From positions 27,782-91,781 of the forward strand of contig JAAYDC010000006.1 in the NCBI GenBank assembly GCA_012729455.1: DNA of 64,000 bases, written 5' to 3'. This document shows, one piece after another, positions 7,384 through 47,895 of this stretch. The notes under the pieces are model-generated. The model ran no database searches. It saw only the letters and a list, made by a program, of their open reading frames with translations, and was not told the origin of the DNA. Position 1 is the first letter of the stretch. Every line of letters begins with the position of its first letter. Origin of the DNA: Chloroflexota bacterium (GTDB lineage Bacteria; Chloroflexota; Anaerolineae; UBA1429). The position numbers and the translations under genes were made by a program.

Positions 7384-7416
7384 GACTACGCCAGCCGGCT
7401 GTTTGGATAGATTGTT

Positions 7417-10447: not shown

Positions 10448-10458
10448 GCGGTCTCCTC

Positions 10459-12864: not shown

Positions 12865-13499
12865 CGCACGCTCGCCTTTTGCTGCGCGTCTGCCCAGGAT
12901 TCGATGCTGGCAGCGATCGCCAGGGCGCTGAGCAACTCGATCACCCCCCATAGGCCAATCACCAGCAGTCCCTGCTCCAGCAGGACAGTCGCGGTGGCAA
13001 ACCCGCTGATCGCCATGAGGATACCGATTCCCAGGCGAAGCGGCTCATTGCCGGTAGCTGCCAAAAAGATGCCCGACAGGATCAGTGCATAGGTCACCAA
13101 ACCGTCGGCAGGCGAGAGATGCAAGAGGTTAGCCTGCCACACCGCATAGACGGCTAACGCGCTAAATACCAGCGTGAGGATCCGGTACAAGATGACGGCC
13201 AGTGAGCTCCGTTGGGCAGCCAGGGTCGAGGCGGCATACACGCGCGCGTGCCGGATCGTCACCAGCAGGATGGCACAGATAGCGATACCGATGCCGATGC
13301 GCAGGATCGTAAGGGGACCATATACGCGCGGACCGATCAGGATCGCCAACAAAGTATACTGAACCAGCAGCGCGACCACGGCGCGCCGCACATCGCTGGT
13401 GAGCATCAGGATCACAGCGGTGATCACGATCAAGATAGCGGTCGATTGTGGAGAAAAGCTTTGCAGTTTCTCGAATAATGCTATCAGGGTATTGTTCAT
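12861..13499 (-). CDS. small hydrophobic membrane protein (about 6 TM), unknown function
   Basis: The 212-aa product is MNNTLIALFEK… with about 6 TM helices. Its start lies 1 nt after the stop of the upstream gene. Confidence 0.45.
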   Translation of the reverse strand: MNNTLIALFEKLQSFSPQSTAILIVITAVILMLTSDVRRAVVALLVQYTLLAILIGPRVYGPLTILRIGIGIAICAILLVTIRHARVYAASTLAAQRSSLAVILYRILTLVFSALAVYAVWQANLLHLSPADGLVTYALILSGIFLAATGNEPLRLGIGILMAISGFATATVLLEQGLLVIGLWGVIELLSALAIAASIESWADAQQKASVR

Positions 13500-13500
13500 G

Positions 13501-15138
13501 CTAGCCCACCAGCAACAGCGCAACCAGGGCTATCGACCACAACACAATCCATGACAGCAGGTAACGCGTTTCGATCGCAAAAACAAAATTGCCCACCATT
13601 TTAGCGCCGGCAGTCGCAAAGCGCTGAACCAGCCCATAGAGCCAATCAAAGCTGAGCAGCCCCAGGTTGCCAGATGACTCGCGCAATGGACGACCATTTT
13701 GACTGCACAGGCTAAAGACAAAAAAGGCGCCTGCCAGTGGGATCACGATGGTCGTCACCAGCGGATAGATCCAGGTAGAGATACCGCCAGCAAAAAGACT
13801 CCGTATGGTGGGCATGGTGAGGGGCAGTGCCAGGATCAGGTTCAGGGTGCCGGGGTGGATTCCCAGTGCAAACAGCCATGCCACAGCCAACAATGCCAAT
13901 ACGACAGTCACATGGGCGAGCACGCGATGCATGTCACCGGCTGGGCGCCGGGTCCTGCCAGACAGGCGCAGTTGGGAGAAACACTGCCAAGCGGCCAGAG
14001 TAGTCTCGACATAGGTAATCGCGAGCAGCACCACCACCAGGATGTAACGACTGCTGATCAGAATCTGCAGCTGCCAGCGCAACACCAGGCTGAGCGCGGC
14101 GGGCGCACCCATCACGATCAGCAGCGCCCCGATTTTTGCCAACGCTACCAGCCTCCGCTGGCGACGGGTATAACCTGCAGCGGAGATCATCAGGATCGCC
14201 GGGGCGATCAGAATCAGTTGCAAGCCCAGCACTGAAAGCCCTACCCCCAGCATCGGTTCAACCAGCGCCCCTAACGGCGCCAAGCTTATCAGGCTCAGGT
14301 AGATCAGCTTTAAGCGGCTTTCCAGGTCACGGCCTAAGACGGCCGCGATGCCCGCCAGCAAGGCGCTGGCTGCCAGCATCGGCCCTAACCAAGCCCAGCC
14401 TGGCAGGGTGAGGGTGCTATAGGTTGCCATACGCAGCCAGACGGCACTGCCGGCACACACCAGGGCGGCCTGTACCAGCCAGGGGCGCTCACGCCAACCC
14501 AGTAACGGAAAGGGCGCCATGCGGATGATGGACGCAACGACCAGCAACAGCACCAATATGGGGGCGCTGACCAGCTCTGGCAGCGTGTTCAACCCACTGT
14601 GCACTATGGCGCTCGAGTTGACCACACTAATCAGCACCACAGGCAACAGGTGCAGTGTCACAATCCAAACCGCGTGGGATTCCTGTATGTCGGGGTTGGA
14701 TAGCATCTCTGCCGCGATCGCCACCAATGAGAGCAGGAACCACATCATGGTAACCGTCATCAGGTTGCTCGCCAAGCAACTGCCGTTTACCAAAGCCAGC
14801 AAAACCAGCTCGCGCCAATGACACTGCGAACCGGTTTGCGAATGGCCTGTACCCGTCAGCCACAGCAGCCAGGCAAAAGAATAAGCCTGCGCCACCGCCA
14901 GGCCGGTGCTCGAGTAACTGAAACTGAGCGGTGGCAGCGGTAAGAGTCCAGGCAGCCCCAGCGTAATGGTGTATCCTGACGGGGCATAGCGCGGCAGGAA
15001 TAGCAGCCCTACCATCAGCACGAGGACGCCAGTCATATGCACCGCCCAGACCCAGGGGCGTCCCTGGTGCTTGACCAAACAATCGATCAGCGCCATTAAA
15101 AGTGGCACTGCCACAGGCAAGAGAATAGTAAAGGCCAC
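13501..15138 (-). CDS. polytopic membrane protein (about 14–16 TM), possible antiporter/complex-I-membrane-arm-like subunit (divergent)
   Basis: The 545-aa protein is strongly hydrophobic and starts with GTG. It is the first gene of a tightly coupled three-gene membrane module. Confidence 0.35.
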   Translation of the reverse strand: MAFTILLPVAVPLLMALIDCLVKHQGRPWVWAVHMTGVLVLMVGLLFLPRYAPSGYTITLGLPGLLPLPPLSFSYSSTGLAVAQAYSFAWLLWLTGTGHSQTGSQCHWRELVLLALVNGSCLASNLMTVTMMWFLLSLVAIAAEMLSNPDIQESHAVWIVTLHLLPVVLISVVNSSAIVHSGLNTLPELVSAPILVLLLVVASIIRMAPFPLLGWRERPWLVQAALVCAGSAVWLRMATYSTLTLPGWAWLGPMLAASALLAGIAAVLGRDLESRLKLIYLSLISLAPLGALVEPMLGVGLSVLGLQLILIAPAILMISAAGYTRRQRRLVALAKIGALLIVMGAPAALSLVLRWQLQILISSRYILVVVLLAITYVETTLAAWQCFSQLRLSGRTRRPAGDMHRVLAHVTVVLALLAVAWLFALGIHPGTLNLILALPLTMPTIRSLFAGGISTWIYPLVTTIVIPLAGAFFVFSLCSQNGRPLRESSGNLGLLSFDWLYGLVQRFATAGAKMVGNFVFAIETRYLLSWIVLWSIALVALLLVG

Positions 15139-20837: not shown

Positions 20838-20976
20838 CTCGAGCCTCCGATCGCAAATTATAAGTAATAACACATCCGCCTGGCACTGGTTGCGAAATGT
20901 CAGCCTCTGGCACAGGTGTAACTATCCAGATGAGCCAGTGTTAAATTATATAACCACTCAACACGGAGATTGTACC

Positions 20977-22212
20977 ATGACGAGACGCGTCGTCGTGACG
21001 GGTTTAGGTGCGGTCAGCCCGGTCGGGCTCACAGCTGCCTCAGCCTGGGAGAGCGTCTGCAGCGGACGCAGCGCTGTCCAACCTATTACCCGTTTTGATA
21101 CCACGGGCTATGGCTCGCGCATTGCTGCGCAGCTACTGTCGTTCAACCCGCTCGAGCATTTTGACGCCCGGGAAGTGCGCCGCCTCGACCCCTATATGCA
21201 GTATGCGATCGTAGCAGCGCGCGAAGCCTACCGTGACGCCGGCCTGCCAGCTGATGTCGCGACAAGCGCGCGCACCGCCGTGATCATCGGCTCGGGGGTA
21301 GGTGGCATGACCACGCAATCCGAACAAATGCTGACGCTGCACGACCGCGGCCCCTCGCGGGTGAGCCCCTTTGGCGCCTCGATGATCCTGGTGGATAGTG
21401 CCGCCAGCAGCGTGGCGCTCGATCTGAAACTGCGCGGCCCCAACATGGCGATCGTCTCGGCGTGTGCAAGCGGTACCAACGCGATCGGTGAAGCCTATGA
21501 AATGATCCGCCGCAATGCCTGCGACGCCGCCCTGGCTGGCGGGGCGGAGGCATGCATCATCCCGCTGGCTGTCTCGGTGTTTTCGATCATGCGCACCCTC
21601 TCCGAGCGCAACGACGATCCCGAGCACGCCTCGCGCCCCTTTGACAAGGACCGCGACGGCTTTGTGATGGCCGAAGGCGCTGCTGTACTGGTACTTGAGG
21701 AGCGTGAGCATGCCCTGGCGCGCGGCGCGACCATCTACGCCGAGGTGAGCGGCTATGGCTGCACCGACGATGCCTACCACATCGTCGCGCCCGACCCGGA
21801 GGCGCGCGGGGCGATCGAATGTATGCGTATCGCTCTCCAATCAGCCAACTTGCAGCCGCAGGATATCGGCTACATCAACGCGCACGGCACCAGTACGCCG
21901 CTCAACGACACCACCGAGACGTTGGCGATCAAGGAAGTGTTTGGGGCGCACGCCTACCGGCTGGCGGTCAGTTCGACCAAGTCAATGACCGGGCACCTGC
22001 TGGGAGCTGCCGGCGCGCTTGAGGCCGTCTTTACCGTCAAGTCGCTGCAGGAGGGCATCCTGCCGCCGACCATCAACCTAGATCATCCTGACGAAAAGTG
22101 CGACCTGGATTACGTGCCGCACACCGCACGCACCCAACAGGTTGCTCACGCGCTCTCCAACTCGTTTGGCTTTGGCGGGCACAATGCTTGCCTTATCTTT
22201 AGCCAAGCCTAA
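20977..22212 (+). CDS. fabF: 3-oxoacyl-ACP synthase II
   Basis: The 411-aa product has the active-site Cys in SACASG and the HGTSTP / GHLLGAAG His motifs. A GGAGA RBS is present. Confidence 0.9.
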
Positions 22213-22231
22213 GCGGCCGTCCGCCGGGCGC

Positions 22232-23352
22232 ATGGCTGAAGTCGTCGGCTGGGGAATGTATGCACCCAGCCGCGTCGTCACTAACGACGAGTTGGCGCGC
22301 CAGATGGATACTTCGGACGAATGGATCCGCACGCGCACCGGCATCTCGCGCCGCCACATAGCTGGTAAGAACGAGACCACCGCGCAGATGGCGGCTGCTG
22401 CAGCTCGGGCAGCGTTGCAGACCGCCGACGAAGACCCGCATCGCATCGAGCTGATCATTGTCGCCACTACCACGCCCGACTATCTGCTGGCTCTACTGCC
22501 TGCCAGGTGCAAAACGCGCTCGGGGCGATCAACGCCGGCGCCTATGATCTGAATGCCGGCTGCTCGGGGTTCATCTATGCCCTGGTGGCCGGGTCGCAGG
22601 CCATCGCCTCGGGCGAATGCGAACGCGTGCTGGTGATCGGCGCAGATACGCTCTCGCGCACCGTAGACTGGGAGGACCGCTCCACCAGCGTTCTGTTTGG
22701 AGATGGTGCCGGCGCTGTAGTGCTGCGCGCCTCTACGGGCAGCGCCGGTGTGCTGGCCAACGTCCTGGGTGCTGATGGCTCGGGTTGTGAGATGCTCTAC
22801 ATCCCCGCGGGCGGCAGCGCCAAACCTGCCTGCCAGGAGACTATCGACCAGCGCGAGCACTATATCCGCATGAACGGCAGCGCAGTATACTACTTTGCAA
22901 CGCGCATCCTGCCAAATGCCACCGAACAGGTGCTGCGTAAAGCCGGGCTGACGCTCGACCAGATCAACCTGCTTATCCCGCACCAGGCCAACCGGCGCAT
23001 CATCGAGAGTGCCGCCAAAAGGCTCAAGCTGCCGATCGAGCGCTTTGCCATGAACCTGCAGGAATATGGCAACACTTCGGCAGCTTCAATCCCGATCGCG
23101 CTGTGCGAAGCGCACAGCGAGGGACGCATCCAGCCGGACGATAACCTGCTGATGGTAGGTTTTGGGGCCGGGTTAACCTGGGCAGCCGGCGTAGTGTGCT
23201 GGAGCGCCGCCCAGGGCGGTGAGCAGCGCAGTGCGCGCGGCATCTGGCGTTGGATGGTCTACACGACGGCGCGTTTACGCAGCCTGACACGTTCCGCCAC
23301 TATTCGCACCATCCGCAAGATGGACGAATGCACCCGGCAGCGCAAGCACTAG
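22232..23352 (+). pseudogene. fabH: 3-oxoacyl-ACP synthase III, interrupted by a frameshift (or sequencing error) at about 22478–22500, with an atypical 47-aa Arg-rich C-terminal tail
   Basis: The N-terminal part (MAEVVGWGMYAPSRVVTNDEL…TTPDYLL) and the C-terminal part (…STACQVQNALGAINAGAYDLNAGCSGF…HQANRRI…GFGAGLTW) are typical FabH. They lie in different frames that overlap at 22507–22552. Confidence 0.6.
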
Positions 23353-23807
23353 CTCTGGGGACGTCCGCGCATCACCAGCGACCATTCGCCCTGCTGGACG
23401 ACCTCGTCGCGCTGGTTGAGCACGCGCATTTCCAGGTACACCAATCCGCCGCCCATAGCCACCACGGCGCGCACCCGCGTCACGGTTGCCTGCACGCGAA
23501 TGGTATCGCCGATCAGCACCGGCGCACGAAAGCGCCAGTCGAGGGTGGTAAAAGCCTGGGCGGTGCCATCGATAAAGCCGTTGCGCGCTGCCAGCCCCGA
23601 GGCGATCGAGAGCACTAACAGACCATGCGCGATGCGCTGCCCAAAGGGCGAGCTGCGCGCGAACTCTGCGTCAGTGTGCAGGGGATTGTAATCGCCCGAG
23701 AGGGCAGCAAAAGCGACGATATCGGCCTCGGTGATAGTGCGAGCCATGCTGTCAAAGGTATCGCCGACTGTGAAATCCTCAAAGAAGCGCGCGTTGGGGC
23801 CGACCAT
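23349..23807 (-). CDS. MaoC-like (R)-specific enoyl-CoA/ACP hydratase (hotdog fold)
   Basis: The product has the MaoC dehydratase motif DYNPLHTDAEFA. Its stop shares a CTAG with the fabH stop. Confidence 0.7.
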   Translation of the reverse strand: MVGPNARFFEDFTVGDTFDSMARTITEADIVAFAALSGDYNPLHTDAEFARSSPFGQRIAHGLLVLSIASGLAARNGFIDGTAQAFTTLDWRFRAPVLIGDTIRVQATVTRVRAVVAMGGGLVYLEMRVLNQRDEVVQQGEWSLVMRGRPQS

Positions 23808-23899
23808 GATGTACCTCACTGTGTTGGTAAGCATAACACCACTGCAAGGTATTAGCAACGCTATTTGCATGCACCGGAGGAGGGTGATACTCTAACCCC

Positions 23900-24577
23900 A
23901 TGCATGATAAGCAATCTACTCTGTTGACCCGCCAGGCTGCCAAACACTGGGGCACAGCCGGCTTGTTTGGTCTGCTGGGGTTGCTGGCACTGACAGCCGG
24001 CGTGGGGGTGGCCTATACCACCAGTTACCGCAAACTGATCTATAGCGCCTCCAATGTGCCTGTTAAGCCGGTGGCGATCGTCTTTGGGGCGGGAGTCTGG
24101 CGCGATGGCACCCTCAGCCCGATCCTCTTGGACCGGGTAGAGACAGCCATCGAGCTATACCAGGCTGAACGGGTGAGCAAGCTGCTGATGACCGGCGATA
24201 ACCGCTATATCGACTATAACGAACCCCAGGCAATGGCCAACTATGCCATCAGCCGCGGCATCCCGTGCGAGGATATCGTGCTGGACTTTGCCGGTCGGCG
24301 CACCTATGACAGCTGCTACCGTGCAGCCTATATCTTTGAGGTGCAGGAGGCCATCCTGGTGACGCAAGCCTACCACCTGCCGCGCGCGCTCTACACCGCG
24401 CGCCATCTGGGCATTGACGCGGTGGGAGTAGCAGCCGATCGGCAAAGTTACCAGTTCATGCGTCAATATCAGTTGCGCGAAGTCACCGCTACGCTGGTGG
24501 CCTGGTGGCAGGTGATGATCAGTAAACCGATCCCGGTTTTGGGACCTGTTATGCCGATTATTGCAGAGAAATCCTGA
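23900..24577 (+). CDS. DUF218/SanA(ElyC)-family membrane-anchored protein
   Basis: The protein has an N-terminal TM segment followed by a DUF218-like domain (VIVFGAGVWRDG…LLMTGDN). Confidence 0.55.
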   Translation: MHDKQSTLLTRQAAKHWGTAGLFGLLGLLALTAGVGVAYTTSYRKLIYSASNVPVKPVAIVFGAGVWRDGTLSPILLDRVETAIELYQAERVSKLLMTGDNRYIDYNEPQAMANYAISRGIPCEDIVLDFAGRRTYDSCYRAAYIFEVQEAILVTQAYHLPRALYTARHLGIDAVGVAADRQSYQFMRQYQLREVTATLVAWWQVMISKPIPVLGPVMPIIAEKS

Positions 24578-24602
24578 TCGTCGCGTGTTCCTTGGAGGTA
24601 CG

Positions 24603-25073
24603 ATGCAGCCGTCAATGTTGACACTGGATGCCTTTACTGTCGTTGGCCCGGTGTATCGCGGCCATAATCAGGCCGGCGAAATCCCCGCGATGTGGCAGAA
24701 CGTTTACCTGCCGCGTATGGACGAAATCCGCCATGTGATTGATGGCGACGAATCGTGGGGCGTGTTCGGCAACCACCAGCCCGATGGCAGCTTGACGTAT
24801 ATGGCGGGATCTCGGGTCGAAAAGGCCGAAGATATCCCCGAAGGTATGCAGGCCTGGGAGCTGAAAGCGCAGACCTATGCTGTCTTCCCTTGCACCCTCG
24901 CACAGATCGGCAAGACGCTGGCATATATCCATCAGGAGTGGCTGCCGGCCTCCGGCTACCTGCACGCCGCCGCACCAGAACTGGAATACTATGGCAAAGC
25001 CTTCTTAGAGGCGCCTGACGGCGTCGGCCAGATCGAGTTGCTGATCCCGGTGGTACCCCACGACCAGACCTAG
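24603..25073 (+). CDS. GyrI-like small-molecule-binding domain protein
   Basis: The product has an AraC_E_bind/GyrI-like fold pattern. A GGAGG RBS precedes the ATG. Confidence 0.55.
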   Translation: MQPSMLTLDAFTVVGPVYRGHNQAGEIPAMWQNVYLPRMDEIRHVIDGDESWGVFGNHQPDGSLTYMAGSRVEKAEDIPEGMQAWELKAQTYAVFPCTLAQIGKTLAYIHQEWLPASGYLHAAAPELEYYGKAFLEAPDGVGQIELLIPVVPHDQT

Positions 25074-25128
25074 GCTGACAAGCACGCCAGATGCGGATAT
25101 ACTCGCCTTTACCAGAGGAATGTGAGCC

Positions 25129-26400
25129 ATGAGAGTTGAACTTGCCTATGGGCAGGAACGTCTGAGCGTCCAGGTGCCCGACCATGCCACCGTGCTGCGG
25201 CCACATGCGGCCCCTGGGCTGGCCGACGAATGCCAGGCGATCCGCGAGGCGCTGCGCAACCCCTTGGGCACCGCCCCGCTGCGCGAGTTGGTAAAGCCCA
25301 GCCAAAAGATCGTGATCCTGTTCAGCGATATCACCCGCCCGATGCCCAGCGACCGCGTCTTGCCGGTGCTGCTCGAGGCGCTTGAGCACATCCCGCGCGA
25401 GCAGATCACGCTGATGAACGCGGTCGGCACGCACCGCGCCAACACCCCCCAAGAGCTGGAGCATATGCTGGGCAGTGAGATCGCCCACGGCTACCGCATC
25501 CTGACTCACGACGCCTTTGATGCTGCCAACCTGGTAAACTTGGGCACCTCGTCGCAGGGCAATCCGCAGCTGGTCAACCGCATCTGGCACGAGGCGGATT
25601 TCAAGATCGCCACCGGCTTTATCCAACCACACATCTTTGCCGGGTTCAGCGGCGGTCCCAAGGCCGTGCTGCCGGGCGTGGCCGGTTTCGAGACGATCAT
25701 GCCCAACCACGGCTATGCGATCCTCAACAACCCGCGAGCCACCTGGGGCGTGACAGAGGGCAACCCGGTGGCGGCTGAGATGCGCGAACTGGCACTGAAG
25801 AGCAAGCCCGACTTTCTGCTCAATGTGACCTCGAACCGCGACAAAGAGATCTGTGCAGTGTTTGCGGGCGAGATGCTGCAGGCGCATCGCGCCGGCATCG
25901 AGTTTGTGCGCCGCACCTCGATGGCTCCCTTTGACGAACCCTTTGATATTGTGGTCACCTCCAACGACGGTTATCCGGCCGATATCAACCTTTATCAATC
26001 CGTCAAGGGTATGTCGGCTGCCGCGCAGATCGTCAAACCCGGCGGGGCGATCATCATTGCCGCCGAATGCCGCGATGGCGTGCCCGATAACGGCCAATAT
26101 CGCAAGCTGGTGGAGCGCGCCGGCAGTCTGGCCGGCATGCAGGCCATGCTCTCGCAACCCGGCTTTCAGGAATATGACCAATGGCAGGTGCAGCTGCAAG
26201 CTGGCGTGATGGCCAAGGCGGATGTTTACGTCTACAGCGAGCTGGCCGATGCCGACGTGCGCAGCATGCTGCTCAACCCGACCCATTCGGTCGAGACCAC
26301 GCTCGACGCCCTGCTGACGCGTTACGGCGCCGATGCCAAGGTGTGCGTGATGCCCGAAGGCCCGCTGGTGATCCCTTACCTCGCCCAACAGGAGGGCTGA
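25129..26400 (+). CDS. LarA-family protein (Ni-pincer-nucleotide-dependent 2-hydroxyacid racemase/epimerase homolog, DUF2088), paralog 1
   Basis: The 423-aa product has an N-terminal DUF2088 pattern (KIVILFSDITRP…VGTHR) that is shared with the second paralog at 54416–55669. Confidence 0.65.
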   Translation: MRVELAYGQERLSVQVPDHATVLRPHAAPGLADECQAIREALRNPLGTAPLRELVKPSQKIVILFSDITRPMPSDRVLPVLLEALEHIPREQITLMNAVGTHRANTPQELEHMLGSEIAHGYRILTHDAFDAANLVNLGTSSQGNPQLVNRIWHEADFKIATGFIQPHIFAGFSGGPKAVLPGVAGFETIMPNHGYAILNNPRATWGVTEGNPVAAEMRELALKSKPDFLLNVTSNRDKEICAVFAGEMLQAHRAGIEFVRRTSMAPFDEPFDIVVTSNDGYPADINLYQSVKGMSAAAQIVKPGGAIIIAAECRDGVPDNGQYRKLVERAGSLAGMQAMLSQPGFQEYDQWQVQLQAGVMAKADVYVYSELADADVRSMLLNPTHSVETTLDALLTRYGADAKVCVMPEGPLVIPYLAQQEG

Positions 26401-26401
26401 C

Positions 26402-28446
26402 ATGACCCGTGAACTGGCTTTGATCCCGCAGCCAAAACAGCTCGAGCGCGGCAAAGGGGTTTTTCAGCTGCAACCGAACACCCGCATCGCCCTGCTGGCG
26501 CCCAATGCGCAGGCGGACCTGGTTGCAGCCGAGTTGCTGTAGCAGGAAATCGCGGCGGCCAGCGCCCTCGAGCTCGAGATCGTAGCCCTCGCGGAGCGCA
26601 ATCTACAGACCAACCAGATCATGCTCGACTCGCAGGGGCTATGCCAAGCTATCCCCGAGCTGGAGAGCCCGCAGGCCTATCTGCTGGTAATCGAGCCGGG
26701 GCGCATCTGCTGCGGCGCCAGCAGCCTGACGGGCCTGTTTTACGCCGTTGCAGACCCTGCGCCAGCTGGTGCGCACCTTTGGCGCCGAACTGCCGGTGCT
26801 GAGCATCCGCGACTGGCCATCGCTTGAGCATCGCGGCGTGATGATGGACGTTTCACGCGGCAAAGTGCCGACCGTTGCGACCATCAAACAGGTGATCGAC
26901 TAGATGGCGCTCTTTAAGATGAACGTGCTGCAGTTTTATACCGAGCATACCTTTCACTTTGCGCGCCACCCGCGCATCGGCCAGGACTGCGGCTCGCTCA
27001 CACCACAGGATATCCTCGAGTTGGACGCCTACTGTCGTGACCGTCATCTCGAACTGATGCCGAACCTGCAATCTTTCGGCCATTGCGAGCACATCCTCAA
27101 CCTGCCCGAATATCGCCCACTGGCCGAATCAGCCGCCCTGTGGTCGCTTTCGCTGGCGGATGAGGGCAGCTATCAGCTGCTGGACGAGCTCTATGGCGAC
27201 ATGCTGCCCAGCTTTACCTCGCGCACGCTCAACATTGGCTGCGACGAGACCTATGACCTCGGCAAAGGGCGCAGCGCCGCAGTGGTCGAGGCGCAGGGGT
27301 TAGGTAGGGTTTACCTGGGACACATCCTGCGTCTGCGCGAGCTGGCGGCACACTACGGCTTCCAGATCCAGCTGTGGGGCGATATCCTGCTGCACCACCC
27401 CCAGCTGGTGAGCGAGGTGCCCGACGACGTAACCTTGCTCGACTGGCACTATGAGGCCGCCGACGATTACCCTTCGACAAAACTGTTTGGCGAACACCAG
27501 CGCCGCTTTTGGGTATGCCCGGACACCTCGTCGTGGAACACGCTCTTTCCGCGTATCGAGAATTCGAACGGCAATATCAAGACCCTGGCACGGGTAGGCA
27601 TCGAGCACGGCGCCGGCGGTATGCTCAACACCGATTGGGACGATGGCGGCCACTACCAGCCGCTGGGGCAATGCTAGTATGGCTATATTTATGGAGCTGA
27701 GCAATCGTGGAGCGGAGGCCGGAGCGAGGATGCTGCCTTTGACAAGGCTTTTGGCAGCCTGGTTTTCGGTACCGGCGGTCAAACCGTCGTGGAGGCCATC
27801 CGCGCGCTCGGGCGCATCAATATCCTGCAGGACATCGCTATCGGCAACGGCAGCCGCACAATCCACAGCCTGCTGGATGAGCCGCTCAACGGCAAGCTGG
27901 CCGACGAGATCCCGCCCGAGACCGTTATGCAGATGATCGACATCACCCAGCGCTGCGAGGCAGCCCTGCGCCAGGCGTATGCGACCGTGCGCGACCAGGT
28001 AAGTGTGGAGGAGCTCTTGTACAGCACGCGCCTGATCAACCTGACGGCGCAAGCTGGCGGCATCGCGGGCTCTGCGCGAGACCATTGCGCAGTTGCCAGA
28101 GGATACGCAGCAGGCTGCCATGGCCTTGCGGAAGGCCATGGCAGGATGGTTGGCGATCGAACGCGAGATCCCAGCCTTTGTCGAGCTCTTTCGCGAGCAG
28201 TGGCTGCAGCGCGCGCGGTATTCAGAAATACGCATCACCCTGCACCACTTTAGCCGGCTGCTGGAGCGCTACAACTTTGCACACGAATGGCTGGCCATTA
28301 AGCTCGCCAGGCTCGAGGCGGGCGAAGCGGTCGCCCTCGACCTGGAGGAATACACGCAGCGTACTGGCCGCTATGAGATCCTTTACCAGGCCTGGGTACG
28401 CCACATTCAGGAGCTCGGCTTCGATTTGGGCCGAGCGCCAGCCTGA
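26402..28446 (+). pseudogene. GH20 beta-N-acetylhexosaminidase, degraded (3 in-frame TAG codons plus 2 frameshifts)
   Basis: GH20 motifs are spread over three frames: IPQPKQ, GLFYAV[Q]TLRQL, HRGVMMDVSRGK…IKQVID*MALFKMNVLQFYTEH and NIGCDETYDLG. In-frame TAG codons lie at 26539–26541, 26901–26903 and 27675–27677. A +1 frameshift lies at about 26745 and a second frameshift at about 28055. Confidence 0.7.
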
Positions 28447-28478
28447 CTTACAGGGCAGGCATCCCCTACCCTGTTTTG

Positions 28479-28739
28479 TTACCTGGGCTCAATCACGCGC
28501 TCGACCAGGATTGAGCAATTGGTAGCCAGGGCAGCCACCGCTCCTACCGCGGTGAGTACCGGCGCGATGATGGCGCCCGCCGCCGCCAGGGTGAGCGGCA
28601 GCTCGACAAGGGTGCGGTCGCCCTGCTTGACGGTGATGCGCCGGATGTTGCCCTCGTGGACCAGCTCTTTGACTTTGTCAACCAGTTGGTTGCCGGTAAC
28701 CTTGATCTCTTCCTGCGTGGTTTGTTCACTAGAACTCAT
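28479..28739 (-). CDS. DUF4342-family small protein
   Basis: The 86-aa product has the DUF4342-like pattern VKELVHEGNIRRITVKQGDRTLVELPLT. Confidence 0.5.
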   Translation of the reverse strand: MSSSEQTTQEEIKVTGNQLVDKVKELVHEGNIRRITVKQGDRTLVELPLTLAAAGAIIAPVLTAVGAVAALATNCSILVERVIEPR

Positions 28740-28796
28740 GCTTGTCCTCGAATTCCACTACATGTACCCTTTACGCAGCCTCATCGGTGCGGTTGC

Positions 28797-29489
28797 TTAC
28801 GCCAACGGCACCAGCACGATATCGTCGCCATCCAGGCCGGGATAGGCCCCCTTGGCAACCTCTTCGGTCTGGTCCGGATGGATCAGCAGCCACTTGTTGA
28901 CGGCATACAGCAGGCGGTTCTCGCCCTGCGGTTTGACCGTATAGGGCAACGGATAGTTGGTTCCGCGCGGTAGATACACCAGCGTAGCGAACGAACCATC
29001 TCGGGTGGTTTGCAGCGGGGCGTAATGCAGGCACCAGGGGGCCATCTCAAAGGCCATGCCGGCTGGCACAAAAAACGCCTCAGCCAGCCTGGTGGGATAG
29101 CTGATCGTCTCGCCGCGCACGATGTCGAGCTCGCTGCCCAGCAGTAGGATCATGTCGGTCAGCGCCACATTTACCTCGCTGCCCTTGTGGTACTCGAGTC
29201 CAGCCATGCGTAGGTTGCGGCCATAACACCAGCCCACCTGCACCGGCATGCCGCCAAAGACCTCTTTTTCGATGCGTTCGTTGATCTCGGCATACACCTC
29301 GAGTGCTGGCACAGCCGGCTCATAGACCACCGCGTCAGTGGGCGGCACCAGCGCCTGAGCGCGTGCTACTATCTCGCGGGTATCATAGTCGGCTAAAACC
29401 TGGCCATAACGCAGATAGACCGGGTCGGTGATCGGGCGAATCTGGAGCTGTGGGTTAACCGCCTGCAGCTGACGGATTTTATCTTGCAT
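28797..29489 (-). CDS. hypothetical protein, DUF4867-like (cupin-like)
   Basis: The 230-aa product resembles the DUF4867 pattern (…YGQVL.DYD…, GMP.Q.GWCYG.N…EYH…). I am assigning the family from memory. Confidence 0.4.
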   Translation of the reverse strand: MQDKIRQLQAVNPQLQIRPITDPVYLRYGQVLADYDTREIVARAQALVPPTDAVVYEPAVPALEVYAEINERIEKEVFGGMPVQVGWCYGRNLRMAGLEYHKGSEVNVALTDMILLLGSELDIVRGETISYPTRLAEAFFVPAGMAFEMAPWCLHYAPLQTTRDGSFATLVYLPRGTNYPLPYTVKPQGENRLLYAVNKWLLIHPDQTEEVAKGAYPGLDGDDIVLVPLA

Positions 29490-29556
29490 GGGGCTCTCCT
29501 TGTATTGATGCCGTCAGTGTAACGCGCTTAAAGCGCGCTGCCAAGCAACCGCGGGT

Positions 29557-29585
29557 TTGACCAGCCCACCGCTCGGACCTACAAT
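29557..29585 (+). promoter_or_regulatory. sigma70-like promoter TTGACC-17-TACAAT ending 7 nt before the EamA ATG (leaderless or near-leaderless mRNA)
   Basis: The -35 element is at 29557–29562 and the -10 element at 29580–29585. The ATG is at 29593. The near-palindrome acgcgcttaaagcgcgct lies just upstream at about 29522–29540. Confidence 0.4.
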
Positions 29586-29592
29586 CCCGCAC

Positions 29593-30525
29593 ATGCACGC
29601 ATCAGGCGCAACACCGATCAGCCCGCCCAAACCACACAAACCGCCCAGCCTGGCCTGGCCTACTCTGGCAGCCGGCATCCTGGCGATCTCTTCGGCCGCG
29701 ATCCTGATCCGCAAAGCGGAGGCACCCGCGCTGGTGATCGGCACGGTTCGGCTGCTCACTGCTGCCATCCTGCTCTCTCCCGCGGTGCTGATCATTGCCC
29801 CCAGGGAATGGGCGGGACTACAGGCGCGCGAACGCTGGGCACTGCTCGCCTCGGGTGCGGCGCTGGGGCTGCATTTTGTGCTGTGGATCCAGTCGCTCAA
29901 ACTCACCACCGTAGCCAGCTCGGTGGTGTTGGCCACCACCAATCCGATCTTTGTGGGGCTGGCTTCACGCCTGATCCTGCGCGAAGCGCTTTCGCGCCGC
30001 CAGCTGCTGGCGATTGTCCTGGCGATGGCGGGCTCGGTGATCATTGCAGCCGGCGACCTGGCCGTCACCGGTGAGGCGCTGCTGGGAGACCTGATGGCCC
30101 TTGTGAGCGCCATGGCGATCTCGGTGCACCTCTTGCTGGGACGCTACCTGCGGCGCCGGTTGAGCAACCTGGCATATATCTGGCCGTGCTACAGTATCGC
30201 GGGTGTGTTGTTGTTGGCGGCAACCCTTCTGGCAGGCCTGCCCTTGTTCGGCTATACCACTGCGACCTATGGCTACATGGCGCTCCTGGGGATTATCCCG
30301 CAGCTGATCGGCCACAGCGCTCTGAATTGGGCGCTGGGATACTTTAGCCCGTTGTTTGTAACCATCGCGATCCTTGGCGAGCCGCTGGGCGCTAGTGCCC
30401 TGGCCTTTATCCTGCTGGACGAAGTGCCCGCGCCGACCGTCCTGCTGGGCACGGTGCTGATCATAGCCGGCATCATCTTGGCAGGCCTGGCCGAACGCGC
30501 AAAATCATACACCATAGAGGGATAA
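29593..30525 (+). CDS. EamA/DMT-family transporter (10 TM)
   Basis: The product has two EamA repeats. I place the start at the ATG directly downstream of the promoter, because the longer ORF would overlap the promoter. Confidence 0.7.
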   Translation: MHASGATPISPPKPHKPPSLAWPTLAAGILAISSAAILIRKAEAPALVIGTVRLLTAAILLSPAVLIIAPREWAGLQARERWALLASGAALGLHFVLWIQSLKLTTVASSVVLATTNPIFVGLASRLILREALSRRQLLAIVLAMAGSVIIAAGDLAVTGEALLGDLMALVSAMAISVHLLLGRYLRRRLSNLAYIWPCYSIAGVLLLAATLLAGLPLFGYTTATYGYMALLGIIPQLIGHSALNWALGYFSPLFVTIAILGEPLGASALAFILLDEVPAPTVLLGTVLIIAGIILAGLAERAKSYTIEG

Positions 30526-30528
30526 CTC

Positions 30529-31746
30529 ATGCAAGTAAACTGGAACGACCGTTTCGCTACGCGCCTCGAGTGGATGACCACTTCGGCTATCCGCGACATC
30601 TTAAAGTGCGCCCAAACGCCCGGGTTGATCTCGATGGCCGGCGGATGGCCCGAGGCCGAGCTCTTCCCTACCGCGCAGCTGGCTGAGATCGCTCAGCAGG
30701 TGCTGACGCAGTCGCCGCGCGACTCGCTGCAATATGGCCTGACGGACGGTCTGACGGTGTTGCGCGAGCAGCTCGCCAAGATGAGCACTGCACAGGGCAT
30801 CCCTGCGCAGCCCGAAAACATTGTGATCACCTCGGGCACGCAGCAGTCGCTCGACCTGCTGGGGCGCATCCTGCTCAACGAGGGGGATACGTTGCTGGTG
30901 GAAAACCCCACCTTTTTAGGGGCATTACAATCGTTCAAGGCCTACGGGGCGCGCTTTCGCGCCGTGCCGATGGACGATCAGGGAGCCATCCCCGAGGAAC
31001 TGGATGGGCACGACGCCAAGTTTTACTATGCCTTGCCGACCTTTCAGAACCCCACCGGCGTGACGACCACTCTCGAGCGCCGCAAAGCGCTGCTTGAACG
31101 CGCCCGCGAGCAGAACCTGGTGATCGTCGAGGATGACCCCTACGGCGTGCTGCGCTTTGAGGGGCAGCCGCTGCCGACCCTGGCGCAGCTGGCGGCCGAA
31201 GAAGACATCGCCAGAGGCGGCTCGGGTCTGCCGCAGCGCGTGATCTATTGCAGCTCATTTTCCAAGATCCTCGCGCCCGGTCTGCGCCTCTCTTGGATTG
31301 TAGCACCGCGTGAGCTGACGGGTCCGCTGGTGATGGCCAAGCAGGGCGCCGACTTGCACACCAATGCCCTTGCGCAATCAATGGCCAGCGAATTCATACG
31401 CCGCGGCTGGATGCCCGCGCAGATCGAACGCATCCGCGAGACCTATCGTGTACGCCGCCAAGCCATGCTGCAAGCCATCGAGGCCTACTTCCCCAGCGGT
31501 ATCTATTACAGCCGCCCGGAAGGTGGGTTATTCATGTGGGTGGAACTGCCTGGCGAGGTCGAGACGATCCCGCTTCTGCCGAAAGCCGTCGAGCAGCAGG
31601 TCGCTTTTGTGCCCGGCAAGCCCTTTTACATCACCGATGCCGGCGACAGCACGATGAGATTGACCTTTGCCAGCATCCAGCCGGAGCTGATCCACGAGGG
31701 CATCCGCCGCCTGGGCGGGCTGATCAAAGCCCACCTGGGAGCCTGA
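30529..31746 (+). CDS. PLP-dependent aminotransferase, class I/II (Aro8/LysN-type 2-aminoadipate/aromatic aminotransferase family)
   Basis: The 405-aa product has an SFSKILAPGLRLSW region carrying the PLP-binding Lys. A GAGGGA RBS is present. Confidence 0.75.
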   Translation: MQVNWNDRFATRLEWMTTSAIRDILKCAQTPGLISMAGGWPEAELFPTAQLAEIAQQVLTQSPRDSLQYGLTDGLTVLREQLAKMSTAQGIPAQPENIVITSGTQQSLDLLGRILLNEGDTLLVENPTFLGALQSFKAYGARFRAVPMDDQGAIPEELDGHDAKFYYALPTFQNPTGVTTTLERRKALLERAREQNLVIVEDDPYGVLRFEGQPLPTLAQLAAEEDIARGGSGLPQRVIYCSSFSKILAPGLRLSWIVAPRELTGPLVMAKQGADLHTNALAQSMASEFIRRGWMPAQIERIRETYRVRRQAMLQAIEAYFPSGIYYSRPEGGLFMWVELPGEVETIPLLPKAVEQQVAFVPGKPFYITDAGDSTMRLTFASIQPELIHEGIRRLGGLIKAHLGA

Positions 31747-31803
31747 CACTTGACGGATTGGGCGCACATCCCTAAACTGCCAAGAGCGTGGAGGTCGGTA
31801 CCC

Positions 31804-33003
31804 TTGATAAAACGCGTGTTTGTAACGCTGCTCCTAGTTGCCCTGATCTTGAGCTCACAAGGCTGTGCGGCAGGGGCGTTGATCCGTGATGTCGAGATCC
31901 GCCCGGCGACGATTTCGCCCAACGCGGATGGCTCGGATGACATCGCCGAGATCAAGTACACCCTCACCGACCAGTCGCAGGTGACGATCTACTTTGTAGA
32001 TAGCGCCGGCAACAAGCACGTCTTTCGCGACGACAAGCGCCGCTCGGCTGGTCCGCGTACCACCTACTTTTCCGGTATCATCGACGGCAGCCTGCTGCCG
32101 GATGGCACCTACACGGTGGTGATCGAGGCGGTCAGCGCGCGCAAGACGGAGTCGATCCAGCGCGAACTGGTGATCACCAATGGCGACCCTGTGCACATCG
32201 AGATTCAGAACCTCTCCGTGTTTCCGCGCGAGTTTACCCCCAACCGCGATGGTATCACCGACCGCGTCACGATCAGCTACAGCCTCAACAAGGAAGCCAG
32301 TCGGGTCGAGGTCTACCTGCTGGATGAAGAAGGCATCAAGTATCCCGTGGCGGAGGATAAAATCCGTGCCTTTGGGGCAGCCGGTGCGCACGAGCACGAC
32401 TACGACGCCGGCATCGACCTGGGGGCGACCCCGCCGGCAGATGGCACCTATACGCTGGTGGTCGAGGCTGAGGACGCCGTGGGCAACAAGGCGCGCGTCG
32501 AGGATAGCATCACCATCACCGGCGGCGGTGTGCCGCGCGTCGAGATCGCAAACGGCGCCGCCCAGTTTTCGTCGACCACCGTGCCCCTAGGCGGGACGCT
32601 GACGTTTACCTGCACAGTGCGTAATATCGGCACAGTGCCGGTGCGTACCAAGGGGCCGGCATCTGGTTACGTCTATACCACCTCAGAAAACTATAACACG
32701 CTCGAACAATACGAAGAGCCTGGCATCTTTCGCATCGGGCTCGATTTCGAGGGCAACAGCGCTGGGCGCAGCTATACCTTTCGTTGGCAGCTGGGCAGCG
32801 ACGAAGAGCTCACCACCGTCCAGACCGATATCGGCCCGCAAAAGTACCTCATGCCCGGCCAGACCGTTACGGTGGTTGGGCACCTGAAAATCGATGACGC
32901 GCCGCCCAAGGCTGCCCCCTATTACTGGATCGGCCTGATCCAGGAACAGGTGCAGATGGTGCAGGACCGCGTCGAGGCTACGCCGATCACTATCGGGTTC
33001 TAG
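31804..33003 (+). CDS. secreted/lipo-protein with two tandem FlgD-Ig-like domains and a C-terminal about 170-aa domain
   Basis: A TTG start with a GGAGG RBS gives the signal peptide MIKRVFVTLLLVALILSSQGC. Two repeats begin ISPNADGSDDIAEIKYTL…DGTYTVVIEA and FTPNRDGITDRVTISYSL…DGTYTLVVEA, which match the FlgD_ig pattern. Confidence 0.6.
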   Translation: MIKRVFVTLLLVALILSSQGCAAGALIRDVEIRPATISPNADGSDDIAEIKYTLTDQSQVTIYFVDSAGNKHVFRDDKRRSAGPRTTYFSGIIDGSLLPDGTYTVVIEAVSARKTESIQRELVITNGDPVHIEIQNLSVFPREFTPNRDGITDRVTISYSLNKEASRVEVYLLDEEGIKYPVAEDKIRAFGAAGAHEHDYDAGIDLGATPPADGTYTLVVEAEDAVGNKARVEDSITITGGGVPRVEIANGAAQFSSTTVPLGGTLTFTCTVRNIGTVPVRTKGPASGYVYTTSENYNTLEQYEEPGIFRIGLDFEGNSAGRSYTFRWQLGSDEELTTVQTDIGPQKYLMPGQTVTVVGHLKIDDAPPKAAPYYWIGLIQEQVQMVQDRVEATPITIGF

Positions 33004-33004
33004 C

Positions 33005-33943
33005 ATGGACCTGGCTGTCGCGATCGTCAGTTACAACACCCGCGAGCTGACGCTGGGATGCCTGGGCTCGCTCTATCGTGAGCTGGACGCAGCCGGCATA
33101 GACGCGGCGGTGACGGTGGTCGACAATGCCTCGTCGGATGGCAGCGCGGCTGCTATCGCAGAGGCGTATCCGCAGGCGACCCTCATCGCCAGTCAGGAAA
33201 ATCTCGGATTCGCGCGCGGCACCAACCTGGCCGTCGCCCAGATGCTGGATCAGGCGCCCGACTATCTGCTGCTCCTCAACCCGGATACCCTGATCAAGCC
33301 TAAAGCGCTCGAATACCTGATGTCGTTCATGCGCGCCGCACCGCGCGTGGCGATGGCAGGCGCTCAGCTCGAGTATGGCGATGGCTCGTTCCAGCATTCC
33401 GCCTTTCGCTTTCCGACGCTGTTGATGGCAGCCTTTGATTTTTGGACGGTCAACCACCGCCTGATCGAATCGCGCCTGAATGGCCGCTACCCGCGCGCCC
33501 TTTACGAGGCCGGCAAGCCTTTCTTGGTCGACCACCCGCTGGGAGCCGCCATGCTGGTAAACACGGCTGCCTGGCGAGAGCTGGGCGCGCTCGACGAGGG
33601 CTATTTCATGTACTGCGAAGAGATCGACTGGTGCAAACGCGCTAGGCTGGCTGGCTGGGAGGTAGCCTGCGTGCCCAAAGCGCGCATCGTGCACTTTGCC
33701 GGCCAGAGCAGCCGCCAGTTCCGGCCGCAGATGTTTACCGCCCTGTGGGCCAGCCGCTTTCGCCTGTTTGCACGCTATTATGATAAAACCTACCAACGCC
33801 GCGTAAAGCGCATCGTGCGGGCTGGGCTGGATAAACTCATTCTCCAGGCGCAGGCGCAACAATCAAGCGGCGAGCTCTCATACCCCGATCTGGAGGCCAT
33901 GCTGGGCGCCTATGCGCAGGTGAGGGAAATAACATGCGCCTGA
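33005..33943 (+). CDS. glycosyltransferase family 2
   Basis: The product has a GT-A fold with the VSYNTRELTLGCLGSL motif, DNASSDGS and a DxD motif. Confidence 0.8.
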   Translation: MDLAVAIVSYNTRELTLGCLGSLYRELDAAGIDAAVTVVDNASSDGSAAAIAEAYPQATLIASQENLGFARGTNLAVAQMLDQAPDYLLLLNPDTLIKPKALEYLMSFMRAAPRVAMAGAQLEYGDGSFQHSAFRFPTLLMAAFDFWTVNHRLIESRLNGRYPRALYEAGKPFLVDHPLGAAMLVNTAAWRELGALDEGYFMYCEEIDWCKRARLAGWEVACVPKARIVHFAGQSSRQFRPQMFTALWASRFRLFARYYDKTYQRRVKRIVRAGLDKLILQAQAQQSSGELSYPDLEAMLGAYAQVREITCA

Positions 33944-40332: not shown

Positions 40333-41094
40333 CTACAAGCGCGCTTTACGGCGCCCAAACTGGCGCACCGCTGCAACAACCGCCACCACGACCACCACCG
40401 AAACAATCATCTCGGGGATGCCCTGCGCCAGGGCAATCACCAGCGACATCCCTGCGGTAAAGTACCCGCGCAGTGTAGCCATTCCCAGCACCAGGACGGT
40501 GTTGGTGAGTGACCCAACCGCAGTCGCCAGGGCAGTCGCCACAATACCGCGGTCTTCGTTCTGCAGCCAAACCATCAGCCCAGCCGCTAGACCAACCATG
40601 ATCAGCGCGATCAAACCGCCCTGCCACCACGTAAAGGCGGCCGATCCGGCGGTGGTTTCGGAAAGGCCCTGCAACCAGCCCAGGGCACCGGGGCTGGCAC
40701 CGGTCAGCAGAGCTACCACCACCAGCGCGACCACTACCAAAATGGTCAGCCCCGCCATCAGGGTGCGCTTGCTGGCGTGGTAAAAGCCCGAAAAAACCCA
40801 TGCCGAAACCAGTCCAATAAACAGCCTCGGCAGGATCGCCACGAGCGGGTCTTTAAAGGCTGGGATGGTAGCCCGCATCAGGCTGGCAAAGCCAAAACCG
40901 AGGCCGATCACCAGGCCCACCAGCGAGCCTTCCAAAATACCGCCAATGATCGCCGGAATATGCACGATGGTGGCATTGCCGGCTGGGGTCGGCACCGGAA
41001 TAAAGCCGATACCTGGTATTAATGCCAGCAACAGTGTGAGAGCCAGCAATAACCCGGCGATGATCACGCGGCGGATGCGTCCATGTTCAGTCAT
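40333..41094 (-). CDS. ECF transporter S component (candidate pantothenate-specific, PanT-like by genomic context)
   Basis: The 253-aa product has about 6 TM segments. A GGGAGG RBS is present. The gene lies between ecfT and coaX. Confidence 0.55.
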   Translation of the reverse strand: MTEHGRIRRVIIAGLLLALTLLLALIPGIGFIPVPTPAGNATIVHIPAIIGGILEGSLVGLVIGLGFGFASLMRATIPAFKDPLVAILPRLFIGLVSAWVFSGFYHASKRTLMAGLTILVVVALVVVALLTGASPGALGWLQGLSETTAGSAAFTWWQGGLIALIMVGLAAGLMVWLQNEDRGIVATALATAVGSLTNTVLVLGMATLRGYFTAGMSLVIALAQGIPEMIVSVVVVVAVVAAVRQFGRRKARL

Positions 41095-41111
41095 GATACC
41101 TCCCGTGGTAC

Positions 41112-41957
41112 CTAAGGTAACGGTAAACGATGCAGAATCAACACCGTCATCAAAATTATTACCGCCAAAGCCAGAGATAGCGTATCCAGCACCTGCCATC
41201 GGCGCACATTCAGTTGCGTGCGGCCGCGTCCTCCCTGGTAGCAGCGCGCCTGCATGGCAAAGGCCATCTCATCGGCATGCCGCAGGGTGCTGACAAAAAG
41301 CGGTACGATCAGGTTGGCGGTGCGTCGTGCACGGCGGATAAACTGCCAGCGCGAACGGCGTTCGGCCACCAGGGTGCGCGCCGCTTGGGCGTGCGATATC
41401 GCCTCAAGCTCCTCGCCCAGGATTGGCAAAAAACGCAGCGCGATCGCCATGACCATTCCCAGCTCGTGACCGGGCAAGCCGACGGCCGTCAACGGCCGCA
41501 GCCACCATTCGACGCCATGGTGCAAAGCCGAGGTCGTGGTGGTGTTGGTTAACAGGCTGACGAGTGCCAGTAAGCCGCCAAAACGCAGCAGTGAAATGAC
41601 CACCATGCGCACCCCAGCCGATGAGATCACCAGCGCCCCCCAGCGCAGATAAACAGTACTGCCGGCCGGCCCCTCACCGTAAAACAAGAGCTGCATGAGG
41701 GTCAACAGCAGGATTAACGGCAGCGCTGGTTTGACGGTGCTGGCCACAAAGCGCGGCGAGAGGCGTGCCAATTTGAGGAACGCCACCAGCAGCAGCACCA
41801 ATGCCAGGTTCACGAGATAGCCATTGGCGGCAAAGATGGCCACCCCCAGGATCAGGCTGATCAGCAGCTTGGCGCGCGCGTCAATGCGATGCACCACCGA
41901 GCCTGTGGGCAGATACTCGCCGATGCTGACCGACCTCAGGCTCTCCAGGCTTGCCAC
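41112..41957 (-). CDS. ecfT: ECF transporter transmembrane (T) component
   Basis: The product is a CbiQ-family protein and is coupled to the ecfA genes. Confidence 0.75.
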   Translation of the reverse strand: MASLESLRSVSIGEYLPTGSVVHRIDARAKLLISLILGVAIFAANGYLVNLALVLLLVAFLKLARLSPRFVASTVKPALPLILLLTLMQLLFYGEGPAGSTVYLRWGALVISSAGVRMVVISLLRFGGLLALVSLLTNTTTTSALHHGVEWWLRPLTAVGLPGHELGMVMAIALRFLPILGEELEAISHAQAARTLVAERRSRWQFIRRARRTANLIVPLFVSTLRHADEMAFAMQARCYQGGRGRTQLNVRRWQVLDTLSLALAVIILMTVLILHRLPLP

Positions 41958-42748
41958 AGAGCCTCCTCCAGATCATCCAGCGAGTCGATCATGTCATCCA
42001 ATGGAGTGCCGGCCGCGCGCAGGGTGTCGCGCATGGCGATCACCGCGGGCGGCACCAATCCCCAGGCAGCTAGGTCGTCGCGGTTAAAGAGCGCCTGACA
42101 ACTGCCCTCAAACACACTGCGCCCTCGGTTCAACACCACAACGTGACTTGCGAGTGCCAAAACTTCGTCCATGTCGTTGGAGACGATCAGCACGGTGGTG
42201 CCACCCACTGCCAACTGGCGCAGAAGGGTATGCATTTGCTGGCGCCCCAGCGGATCGAGCCCGGTCGTGACCTCATCGAGGATCAACAGCTCGGGCTGAG
42301 TAGCCAGCACGCCGGCGATGGCGGCCCGGCGCATCTCTCCGCCGGATAGAGAAAAGGTATGGCGATTGCTGAACGCCTCGGGATCCAGCCCGACAACGCG
42401 CATCACACCATAGACGCGCTCGCGCAGCACGTCACCTGTTAACCCGAGCTGGCGCGGCCCGTAAGCGATGTCATCGCCGACGAAACGCTCAAAGAGCTGC
42501 TGCTGGGGATATTGCATCACCAGCCCCACACGCTGGCGCAGCATCCCCAAGTCGAGATCGGCGGCGGCCAGATCCTGGCCCAACACCTGCACCACGCCCA
42601 GTGAACGCGGCAGCAAGAGGCCGTTGATAAAGTGCAACAGGGTCGACTTGCCGGCGCCATTTTCGCCCACCAGGGCACTGATCTTGCCAGAGGGCAGCGT
42701 CAGGCTGGCATCCTGCAAGGCCACTTGGGCCAGTGGGCTGTCGGCCAT
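41936..42748 (-). CDS. ecfA2: ECF transporter ATPase A2
   Basis: The product has a Walker A motif (GENGAGKST), the LSGGEMRR signature and an LLILDE Walker B motif. Confidence 0.8.
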   Translation of the reverse strand: MADSPLAQVALQDASLTLPSGKISALVGENGAGKSTLLHFINGLLLPRSLGVVQVLGQDLAAADLDLGMLRQRVGLVMQYPQQQLFERFVGDDIAYGPRQLGLTGDVLRERVYGVMRVVGLDPEAFSNRHTFSLSGGEMRRAAIAGVLATQPELLILDEVTTGLDPLGRQQMHTLLRQLAVGGTTVLIVSNDMDEVLALASHVVVLNRGRSVFEGSCQALFNRDDLAAWGLVPPAVIAMRDTLRAAGTPLDDMIDSLDDLEEALWQAWRA

Positions 42749-42782
42749 ATAGGTATGCGCCAGGCGGCTGATGCACACGGCC

Positions 42783-43625: not shown

Positions 43626-43817
43626 GAAAAAAGCCTCGCCCCAAGACGGAGCAAGGCCAACTGACTGCCCGCTATAGCCGTCTCGGTCTAAAGATCCAAG
43701 CGACGTTTATGGGTACTGTAGCAAGTTTGGTGCCAGTAACTGGTCACCGACAAGCGGATTGTAAGCCAAAGCTGCCCTGATGTAAAATGTTAACATCATG
43801 AAACGACAGGGGGCGTA

Positions 43818-47780: not shown

Positions 47781-47895
47781 TACCCCACCTCCCTGCGTTG
47801 TTTTGTTTGTTGTAGCCCAGTGCCGGGCCCGCGTCAAGGGGCTGGTTTGACATCCACCGGGCTTTCGGGCATACCTAGGTCATACTACCTGATGG

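Follow-up and report, generated by a model that had tools for sequence, protein, structure and literature searches.

A GH20 β-N-acetylhexosaminidase pseudogene with five small lesions in an Anaerolineae-related Chloroflexota bacterium

The window, by which we mean the whole 64,000-nucleotide stretch of Chloroflexota DNA analyzed here, contains a gene for a GH20 β-N-acetylhexosaminidase that is interrupted five times. Very probably it is a unitary pseudogene, a gene from which selection was lost and in which neutral mutations have since gathered. Three-frame translation of positions 26402-28446 reveals three in-frame TAG codons and two frameshifts, and an alignment of the repaired protein with 120 homologues was used to score the residues expected at each site. 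The features of the locus are as follows.

26390..26404, forward strand: intact translation start, read from the sequence (AGGAGG at 26390-26395, ATG at 26402-26404)
26402..28446, forward strand: GH20 β-N-acetylhexosaminidase pseudogene; when repaired, 680 aa comprising a GH20b N-domain, a TIM-barrel catalytic domain and a helical C-terminal domain
26540..26542, forward strand: TAG no. 1 (AELL*QEI); the column holds Gln in 89 of 120 homologues, Lys in 13 and Arg in 12, and fits CAG to TAG (C>T)
26750, forward strand: frameshift 1, an extra G between GTT (Val116) and CAG (Gln117); frame 0 to frame +1
26901..26903, forward strand: TAG no. 2 (KQVID*MALFK); a variable column among the 120 homologues (Glu 45, Gln 22, Val 16, His 12)
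27522..27524, forward strand: Gly374 to Asp (GAC) in the CPGTSSWN motif; Gly in 120 of 120 homologues, fits GGC to GAC
27639..27641, forward strand: Gly413 to Asp (GAC) in the TDWGD motif; Gly in 120 of 120 homologues, fits GGC to GAC
27675..27677, forward strand: TAG no. 3 (GQC*YGYIYG); Trp in 114 of 120 homologues, fits TGG to TAG (G>A)
28047..28053, forward strand: frameshift 2, GCG-c-AAG at 28050 (ACG GCG c AAG CTG); frame +1 to frame +2

The coding sequence can be followed through the three frames in order. Frame 0 runs from the ATG at 26402 through the first TAG to GLFYAV, frame +1 begins with QTLRQLVRTF and carries the second and third TAG codons, and frame +2 encodes the C-terminal part, ending at the TGA at 28444-28446. 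The ATG itself sits one base past the TGA stop of the upstream larA gene (26398-26400). An initial annotation of this DNA, made from the letters alone, had described the same architecture. Its three stop strings are exactly reproduced by our translation, its two frameshifts and the GH20 motifs that it had traced across three frames are seen both in the translation and in the tblastn matches described below, and its lesion coordinates (26539, 26745, 26901, 27675 and 28055) fall within about 5 nt of the positions refined here.

For repair, one G was dropped at 26750 and the base at 28050 was treated as an orphan, which joins the pieces into the 680-aa protein. The repaired protein matches both Pfam domains of the family, PF02838 (Glyco_hydro_20b) with 63.2 bits against a cut-off of 26.1 and PF00728 (Glyco_hydro_20) with 53.0 bits against a cut-off of 22.3. 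It is 54-56% identical to GH20 proteins of about 688 aa from Chloroflexi/Anaerolineae MAGs, with 97-99% of its length aligned. Conversely, a tblastn search of the window with an intact homologue of 687 aa (P0002) gives three collinear matches in frames 2, 3 and 1 that together span residues 6-685, and finds no second GH20 within the 64 kb.

The best sequence matches in the PDB are GH20 enzymes of the GcnA/GH20C type (5A6B and 5A69, labelled GH20C, and 2EPK, presumably from S. pneumoniae and S. gordonii), with E = 1e-19 over the barrel. The repaired protein resembles these enzymes in its size (~630-690 aa), in its GH20b N-domain, in the stretch that follows the barrel at the C terminus and in the G-x-D-E motif of the TIM barrel, which reads IGCDET here and IGMDEA in 5A6B. 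The catalytic pair of this motif, D281-E282 (NIGCDETYDLG), is kept, is invariant in the homologue alignment and aligns with the IGMDEAH of 5A6B. Outside the barrel, however, identity to the PDB entries is low, and the family to which the repaired protein truly belongs is a Chloroflexi clade (45-56% identity). More importantly, unlike these enzymes the copy in the window is interrupted five times and cannot encode an enzyme. No uninterrupted frame covers the whole barrel, the longest fragment being 257 aa, and three invariant or near-invariant residues of the family are lost, as Gly374 and Gly413 have become Asp and Trp425 has become a stop.

The nature of each lesion can be read from its context. 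Frameshift 1 lies in GCC GTT g CAG ACC (GLFYAV/QTLRQL) and is a 1-bp insertion, because the homologues have no matching insertion column; dropping the base restores the YAVQTLRQ motif. For frameshift 2, loss of 2 bp from a (GC)3 run (GCGCGC) is a better reading than an insertion, because putting GC back gives GCG CGC AAG and thereby the Ala-Arg-Lys of the homologues, 93 of 120 of which have Arg at the central position. Each of the three stops had been called consistent with a CAG-to-TAG or TGG-to-TAG transition. This agrees with the columns at TAG no. 1 (CAG) and TAG no. 3 (TGG), whereas TAG no. 2 fits an origin from either CAG or GAG. The ancestral codons at the lesions are those that we infer from the alignment, as the closest homologues, at about 55% identity, are too distant for rigorous reconstruction.

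In addition to the five interruptions, the gene carries substitutions that would be expected to harm the protein. Each of the two Gly-to-Asp codons is a single G>A step from GGC, and the change at Gly374 is likely a damaging missense mutation. A further departure from the consensus is Pro251Leu (CCG>CTG). Overall, if only columns with 95% conservation or more are counted (162 in all), the repaired protein differs from the consensus in 10 of them; the 120 homologues differ in 2 on median and in 14 at most. The signal of relaxed constraint is moderate, in that two intact homologues have 13 and 14 departures against the 10 of the pseudogene. A single base change would account for 11 departures, and 10 of these run from GC to AT, the direction typical of unselected bacterial DNA. 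These extra damaging substitutions may point to neutral decay.

The extent of this decay is modest. Between 3.5 and 4.6% of the possible mutations in the gene are nonsense, so the presence of three stops implies roughly 66-85 substitutions, or 3-4% neutral divergence since inactivation, a figure with a wide Poisson error. No large deletion is found in the gene and its full length is kept; GC3 ranges from 0.75 to 0.86, and the codon-usage score still resembles that of neighbouring genes. Heavy erosion is not seen, and the pseudogene is moderately young. The description of the gene as heavily decayed was thus too strong for a sequence that retains its full length, its GC3 and its catalytic D-E, has no large indels and, from its lesion count, would have diverged neutrally by a few percent.

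The corresponding gene is intact in relatives. Two neighbours serve to locate it.

25129..26400, forward strand: larA-family gene (nickel-dependent lactate racemase, LarA), intact, directly upstream of GH20 and its operon partner
28479..28739, reverse strand: DUF4342 gene, convergent with GH20 and used as a synteny marker

The nine closest genome relatives among the matches listed (L011-L019, GTDB representatives), whose GH20 proteins are 45-53% identical, each carry, at the corresponding position, a single GH20 ORF that is uninterrupted and measures 674-732 codons from stop to stop. In four of them (L011-L014) the GH20 start comes just after the end of a LarA homologue that is 57-60% identical to the product of window 25129-26400; DUF4342 is convergent downstream of GH20 in L011, L012 and L014, and DUF4867 is nearby in L011, L012 and L013. 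Because L011-L014 share LarA upstream and DUF4342, DUF4867 or both downstream, the GH20 of the window sits in the orthologous, syntenic position and is dead only in this lineage. Comparison with orthologous loci, which the initial annotation had proposed as a check, thus yields nine intact relatives, four of them with LarA upstream.

The larA-GH20 pair recurs in four distant Anaerolineae genomes (loci L011-L014, at about 6700-10450). In the window LarA is intact although its partner GH20 is dead; any functional link would join a nickel-pincer racemase homologue and a hexosaminidase. A search for a closer relative or a less-decayed allele among 5.8 billion proteins found none, the best full-length match being 56% identical, and a repaired N-terminal query spanning three of the lesions found no longer near-identical protein and nothing above 58% identity. 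In the metagenome contig collection a single identical copy was found, after which the nearest relative shares 71% identity over the catalytic core. None of the relatives found is close enough to support a dN/dS estimate.

A second gene is disrupted 4 kb upstream of GH20.

22232..23352, forward strand: fabH (KAS III), with a 1-bp deletion at 22490/22491 (TPDYLL/gc/STACQVQ)

The native fabH needs a repair of 1 bp, after which its product matches TIGR00747 and NF006829 over positions 2-324 with 429 and 388 bits, above the cut-offs. By eye, the motifs that normally hold the catalytic Cys, His and Asn are still present. Past the last position of the FabH profile the frame stays open for another 49 aa, until it meets the stop of MaoC, a convergent gene; this tail may reflect a stop-loss. 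The frameshift in fabH had been noticed initially, and it stands; the same split is found in two other assemblies. Apart from the proximity of fabH and GH20, for which there is no demonstrated cause, nothing supports the suggestion that local relaxed selection joins the two genes.

The two disrupted genes lie in a region that is otherwise intact and dense, as had been claimed. Pfam scans and database gene-call records covered most gene calls of the window, up to about 57.4 kb; every matched domain is near full length, the gene set is a normal one, and among the gene calls scanned only fabH and GH20 are broken. Two broken genes among the ~57 of the window is within the usual bacterial range. 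The scanned genes include ilvD, a solute-binding protein (SBP), a Glucosamine_iso-family protein (NagB/Pgl-like), an MFS transporter, an ABC transporter, a UvrD/PcrA-type helicase and a class I aminoacyl-tRNA synthetase of the Glu/Gln type (GlnRS-like). There is also a fab cluster with fabG, fabD, a fabK-like gene and fabF, along with MaoC, DUF218, GyrI-like, LarA and EamA, and further genes encode an aminotransferase, GT2 glycosyltransferases, a ribosome hibernation factor, CoaBC, CoaX, an ECF transporter, PFK and 6PGDH. Several ORF arrangements were considered as broken genes and rejected as separate normal genes: the same-frame pairs 60543-62351 with 62352-63143, 56584-57687 with 55669-56583 and 54416-55711 with 52973-54415, the same-frame ORFs at 29509-33003, and the overlapping pairs at 40333-43706, 47893-50042 and 51700-54415.

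A few other features of the window deserve mention. A second LarA-like gene lies at 54416-55687 on the reverse strand; only its Lar_N domain matches Pfam, and it clusters with a HAD hydrolase, an SDR, a 6-phosphogluconate dehydrogenase and a phosphofructokinase-family (PF00365) gene. Three consecutive membrane-protein genes occupy 11503-15138 on the reverse strand, of which one matches Proton_antipo_M weakly and the other two (12861-13529 and 13501-15138) match nothing in Pfam. At 3100-5601, 21 kb upstream of GH20, the solute-binding protein gene accompanies the intact Glucosamine_iso-family gene, which could encode NagB or a 6-phosphogluconolactonase. In the NagB case, the organism would have lost the hexosaminidase but kept part of an amino-sugar pathway.

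Could the gene be intact in the organism, with the stops and indels being errors of the MAG? Errors can occur in MAG consensus sequences, and the presence of two disrupted genes within 5 kb would fit this reading. The lesions, however, recur elsewhere. Eighteen contigs carry the exact 257-aa fragment that lies between the second and third TAG, and 10 of them were fetched and compared. These were separately deposited, in several contig-naming styles, at NCBI (GCA_036800065.1), JGI (3300009652, 3300009680, 3300026311 and 3300026255), ENA (ERZ773285, ERZ747221, ERZ27268596 and ERZ27268617) and Logan (SRR5007708). They count as independent sequencing and assembly events, not as evolutionary lineages, and some may share reactors or reads. 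In all ten the pseudogene is 100% identical to the window (eight span all 2045 bp and two span 1772-1781 bp), and all ten give the same fragmented gene calls of 46, 51, 257 and 108 aa. The flanks, compared over up to 12.7 kb (window 20904-33677 against L001-L005), show 0-1 base difference, for example A/T at 31663, which indicates one near-clonal lineage across the sampled metagenomes. In one JGI contig (L006, Ga0123335_1035291), bases 1-480 are unaligned or divergent and resemble a different LarA homologue while the remainder is identical to the window; we considered a strain variant and rejected it, the divergent stretch apparently being a chimeric contig end. Searching the literature for the sample and assembly accessions gave no match. 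Identical lesions in ten assemblies with different sample accessions from four data providers are difficult to reconcile with error, as is the identical split of fabH in L001 and L002, the two assemblies that reach that gene. Moreover, three of the lesions are base substitutions, which is not a typical short-read assembly error, and neither indel lies within a long homopolymer. The initial annotation had allowed for local sequence errors in this neighbourhood; these are excluded by the agreement of the ten assemblies over GH20 and of the two over fabH, and an intact gene hidden by artefact is extremely unlikely.

If the lesions are real, the gene might in principle still yield protein, either by recoding or through one of its fragments. 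Recoding would require that TAG is read as an amino acid, by a suppressor tRNA, a pyrrolysine-like system or readthrough, and that programmed frameshifts complete a full-length enzyme. That the three premature stops share one codon, and that the ribosome-binding site, start codon and catalytic D-E motif are intact, would be in keeping with this. Such reassignments are known, as in pyrrolysine decoding and the use of TAG for Gln in some phages, but the likeness is superficial, amounting to several in-frame TAG codons in a conserved gene. Unlike in those systems, TAG is the main terminator here: the window has 52 complete gene calls, of which 21 stop at TAG, 17 at TGA and 14 at TAA. In three clear cases the ATG of an unrelated gene comes only a few codons after a TAG, which is then an unambiguous gene end (a NERD/helicase-like gene then a hydrolase-like gene, an SDR then a HAD gene, and a LarA-like gene then 6PGDH). 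The SBP gene (3100-4716, reverse strand) and the MFS gene (7417-8703, forward strand), cited initially as examples of TAG as an ordinary stop, both indeed end in TAG. The in-frame TAG codons, for their part, align with differing residues in the 120 homologues, namely Gln, a variable Glu/Gln/Val/His column and a near-invariant Trp, and they occur alongside frameshifts. Nor is it remarkable that all three stops are TAG, because 63-67% of the possible single-base nonsense mutations in the gene yield this codon, given its usage of 35 CAG, 40 GAG, 12 TGG, 6 CAA and 1 CGA; with transition and GC>AT biases varied over a range, the probability that three of three stops are TAG is 0.25-0.31. On inspection no slippery heptamer is visible at either shift site, no tRNA gene is found in the 64-kb window, and the Gly-to-Asp changes at invariant positions speak for a function already lost. 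To our knowledge, a gene with five separate recoding events would have no precedent. Recoding, which had been judged unlikely from the outset on the strength of TAG usage, has a probability that we regard as close to nil. Retention of a single expressed piece with residual or new function is very unlikely as well. The most plausible candidate is the 257-aa ORF at 26904-27677 (forward strand), which starts with an ATG directly after TAG no. 2, covers the D-E catalytic motif, has a codon-usage score typical of real genes and is annotated by NCBI as a normal protein (NLV73403.1). The good codon usage is simply a legacy of the parent gene, though, and no apparent Shine-Dalgarno-like motif precedes the ATG (by inspection only). 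The ORF lacks the first barrel strand region, the conserved HRG..D.SR lying upstream of TAG no. 2, as well as everything past Trp425, and both Gly-to-Asp changes at invariant positions fall inside it.

We therefore return to the unitary pseudogene, for which the earlier phrase, a genuine multi-lesion pseudogene, is borne out by five lesions identical in ten assemblies, by TAG as a normal stop and by intact syntenic orthologues. Its history very probably ran as follows. The ancestor was an intracellular β-N-acetylhexosaminidase of the GcnA/GH20C type; its gene stood last in a larA-GH20 operon of an uncultured Chloroflexi bacterium related to the Anaerolineae. Once selection on it was lost, neutral mutations accumulated: three nonsense substitutions (two fitting CAG or GAG to TAG and one TGG to TAG), one 1-bp insertion, one 2-bp deletion by slippage in a GC repeat, and several missense changes at otherwise invariant residues, with most of the inferred changes running from GC to AT. 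Ribosomes starting at the intact ribosome-binding site and ATG would stop after 46 codons, and therefore no functional enzyme would be made. Many metagenomes sample the near-clonal population in which the lesions would be fixed. For the order in which the lesions arose, and for their age, the scheme gives what we infer from the sequence.

Unitary pseudogenes that arise by point nonsense mutations and small indels are familiar in bacteria, for example in Mycobacterium leprae and host-restricted Salmonella. The GH20 locus resembles them in having several independent lesions, a GC>AT bias, length and synteny that are kept, and intact orthologues in relatives. It differs from them in that there is no evidence of genome-wide reductive evolution, with 2 of ~57 genes broken in the window (fabH and GH20). 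The loss of GH20, and perhaps of fabH, could instead have been adaptive or driven by a bottleneck, in a single clone that spread across many bioreactor or digester metagenomes while its sequence hardly varied. We consider this improbable. If true, it would mean an unusually high and recent genome-wide pseudogene load and early-stage genome reduction in a free-living member of the Anaerolineae, but nothing in the 64-kb window requires a genome-reduction reading.

The GH20 pseudogene is a real feature and a case of ordinary biology. It opens no new biological question, and its value is mainly practical, as a clean worked example of how a real pseudogene can be told from assembly error and from recoding using public assemblies alone. 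In the public record, exact sequence matching leads to a Chloroflexi MAG contig of 303,673 bp, whose proteins for this region of the window are NLV73400.1-NLV73408.1, among which the 257-aa fragment, NLV73403.1, is listed as an ordinary 'family 20 glycosylhydrolase', and the locus is not flagged as a pseudogene. The 46-, 51- and 108-aa pieces have likewise been called as genes by gene callers. Metabolic reconstructions of digester communities that rely on such fragment records would mistakenly assign the organism a hexosaminidase capacity, and annotations of this kind overstate its glycan-degrading repertoire.
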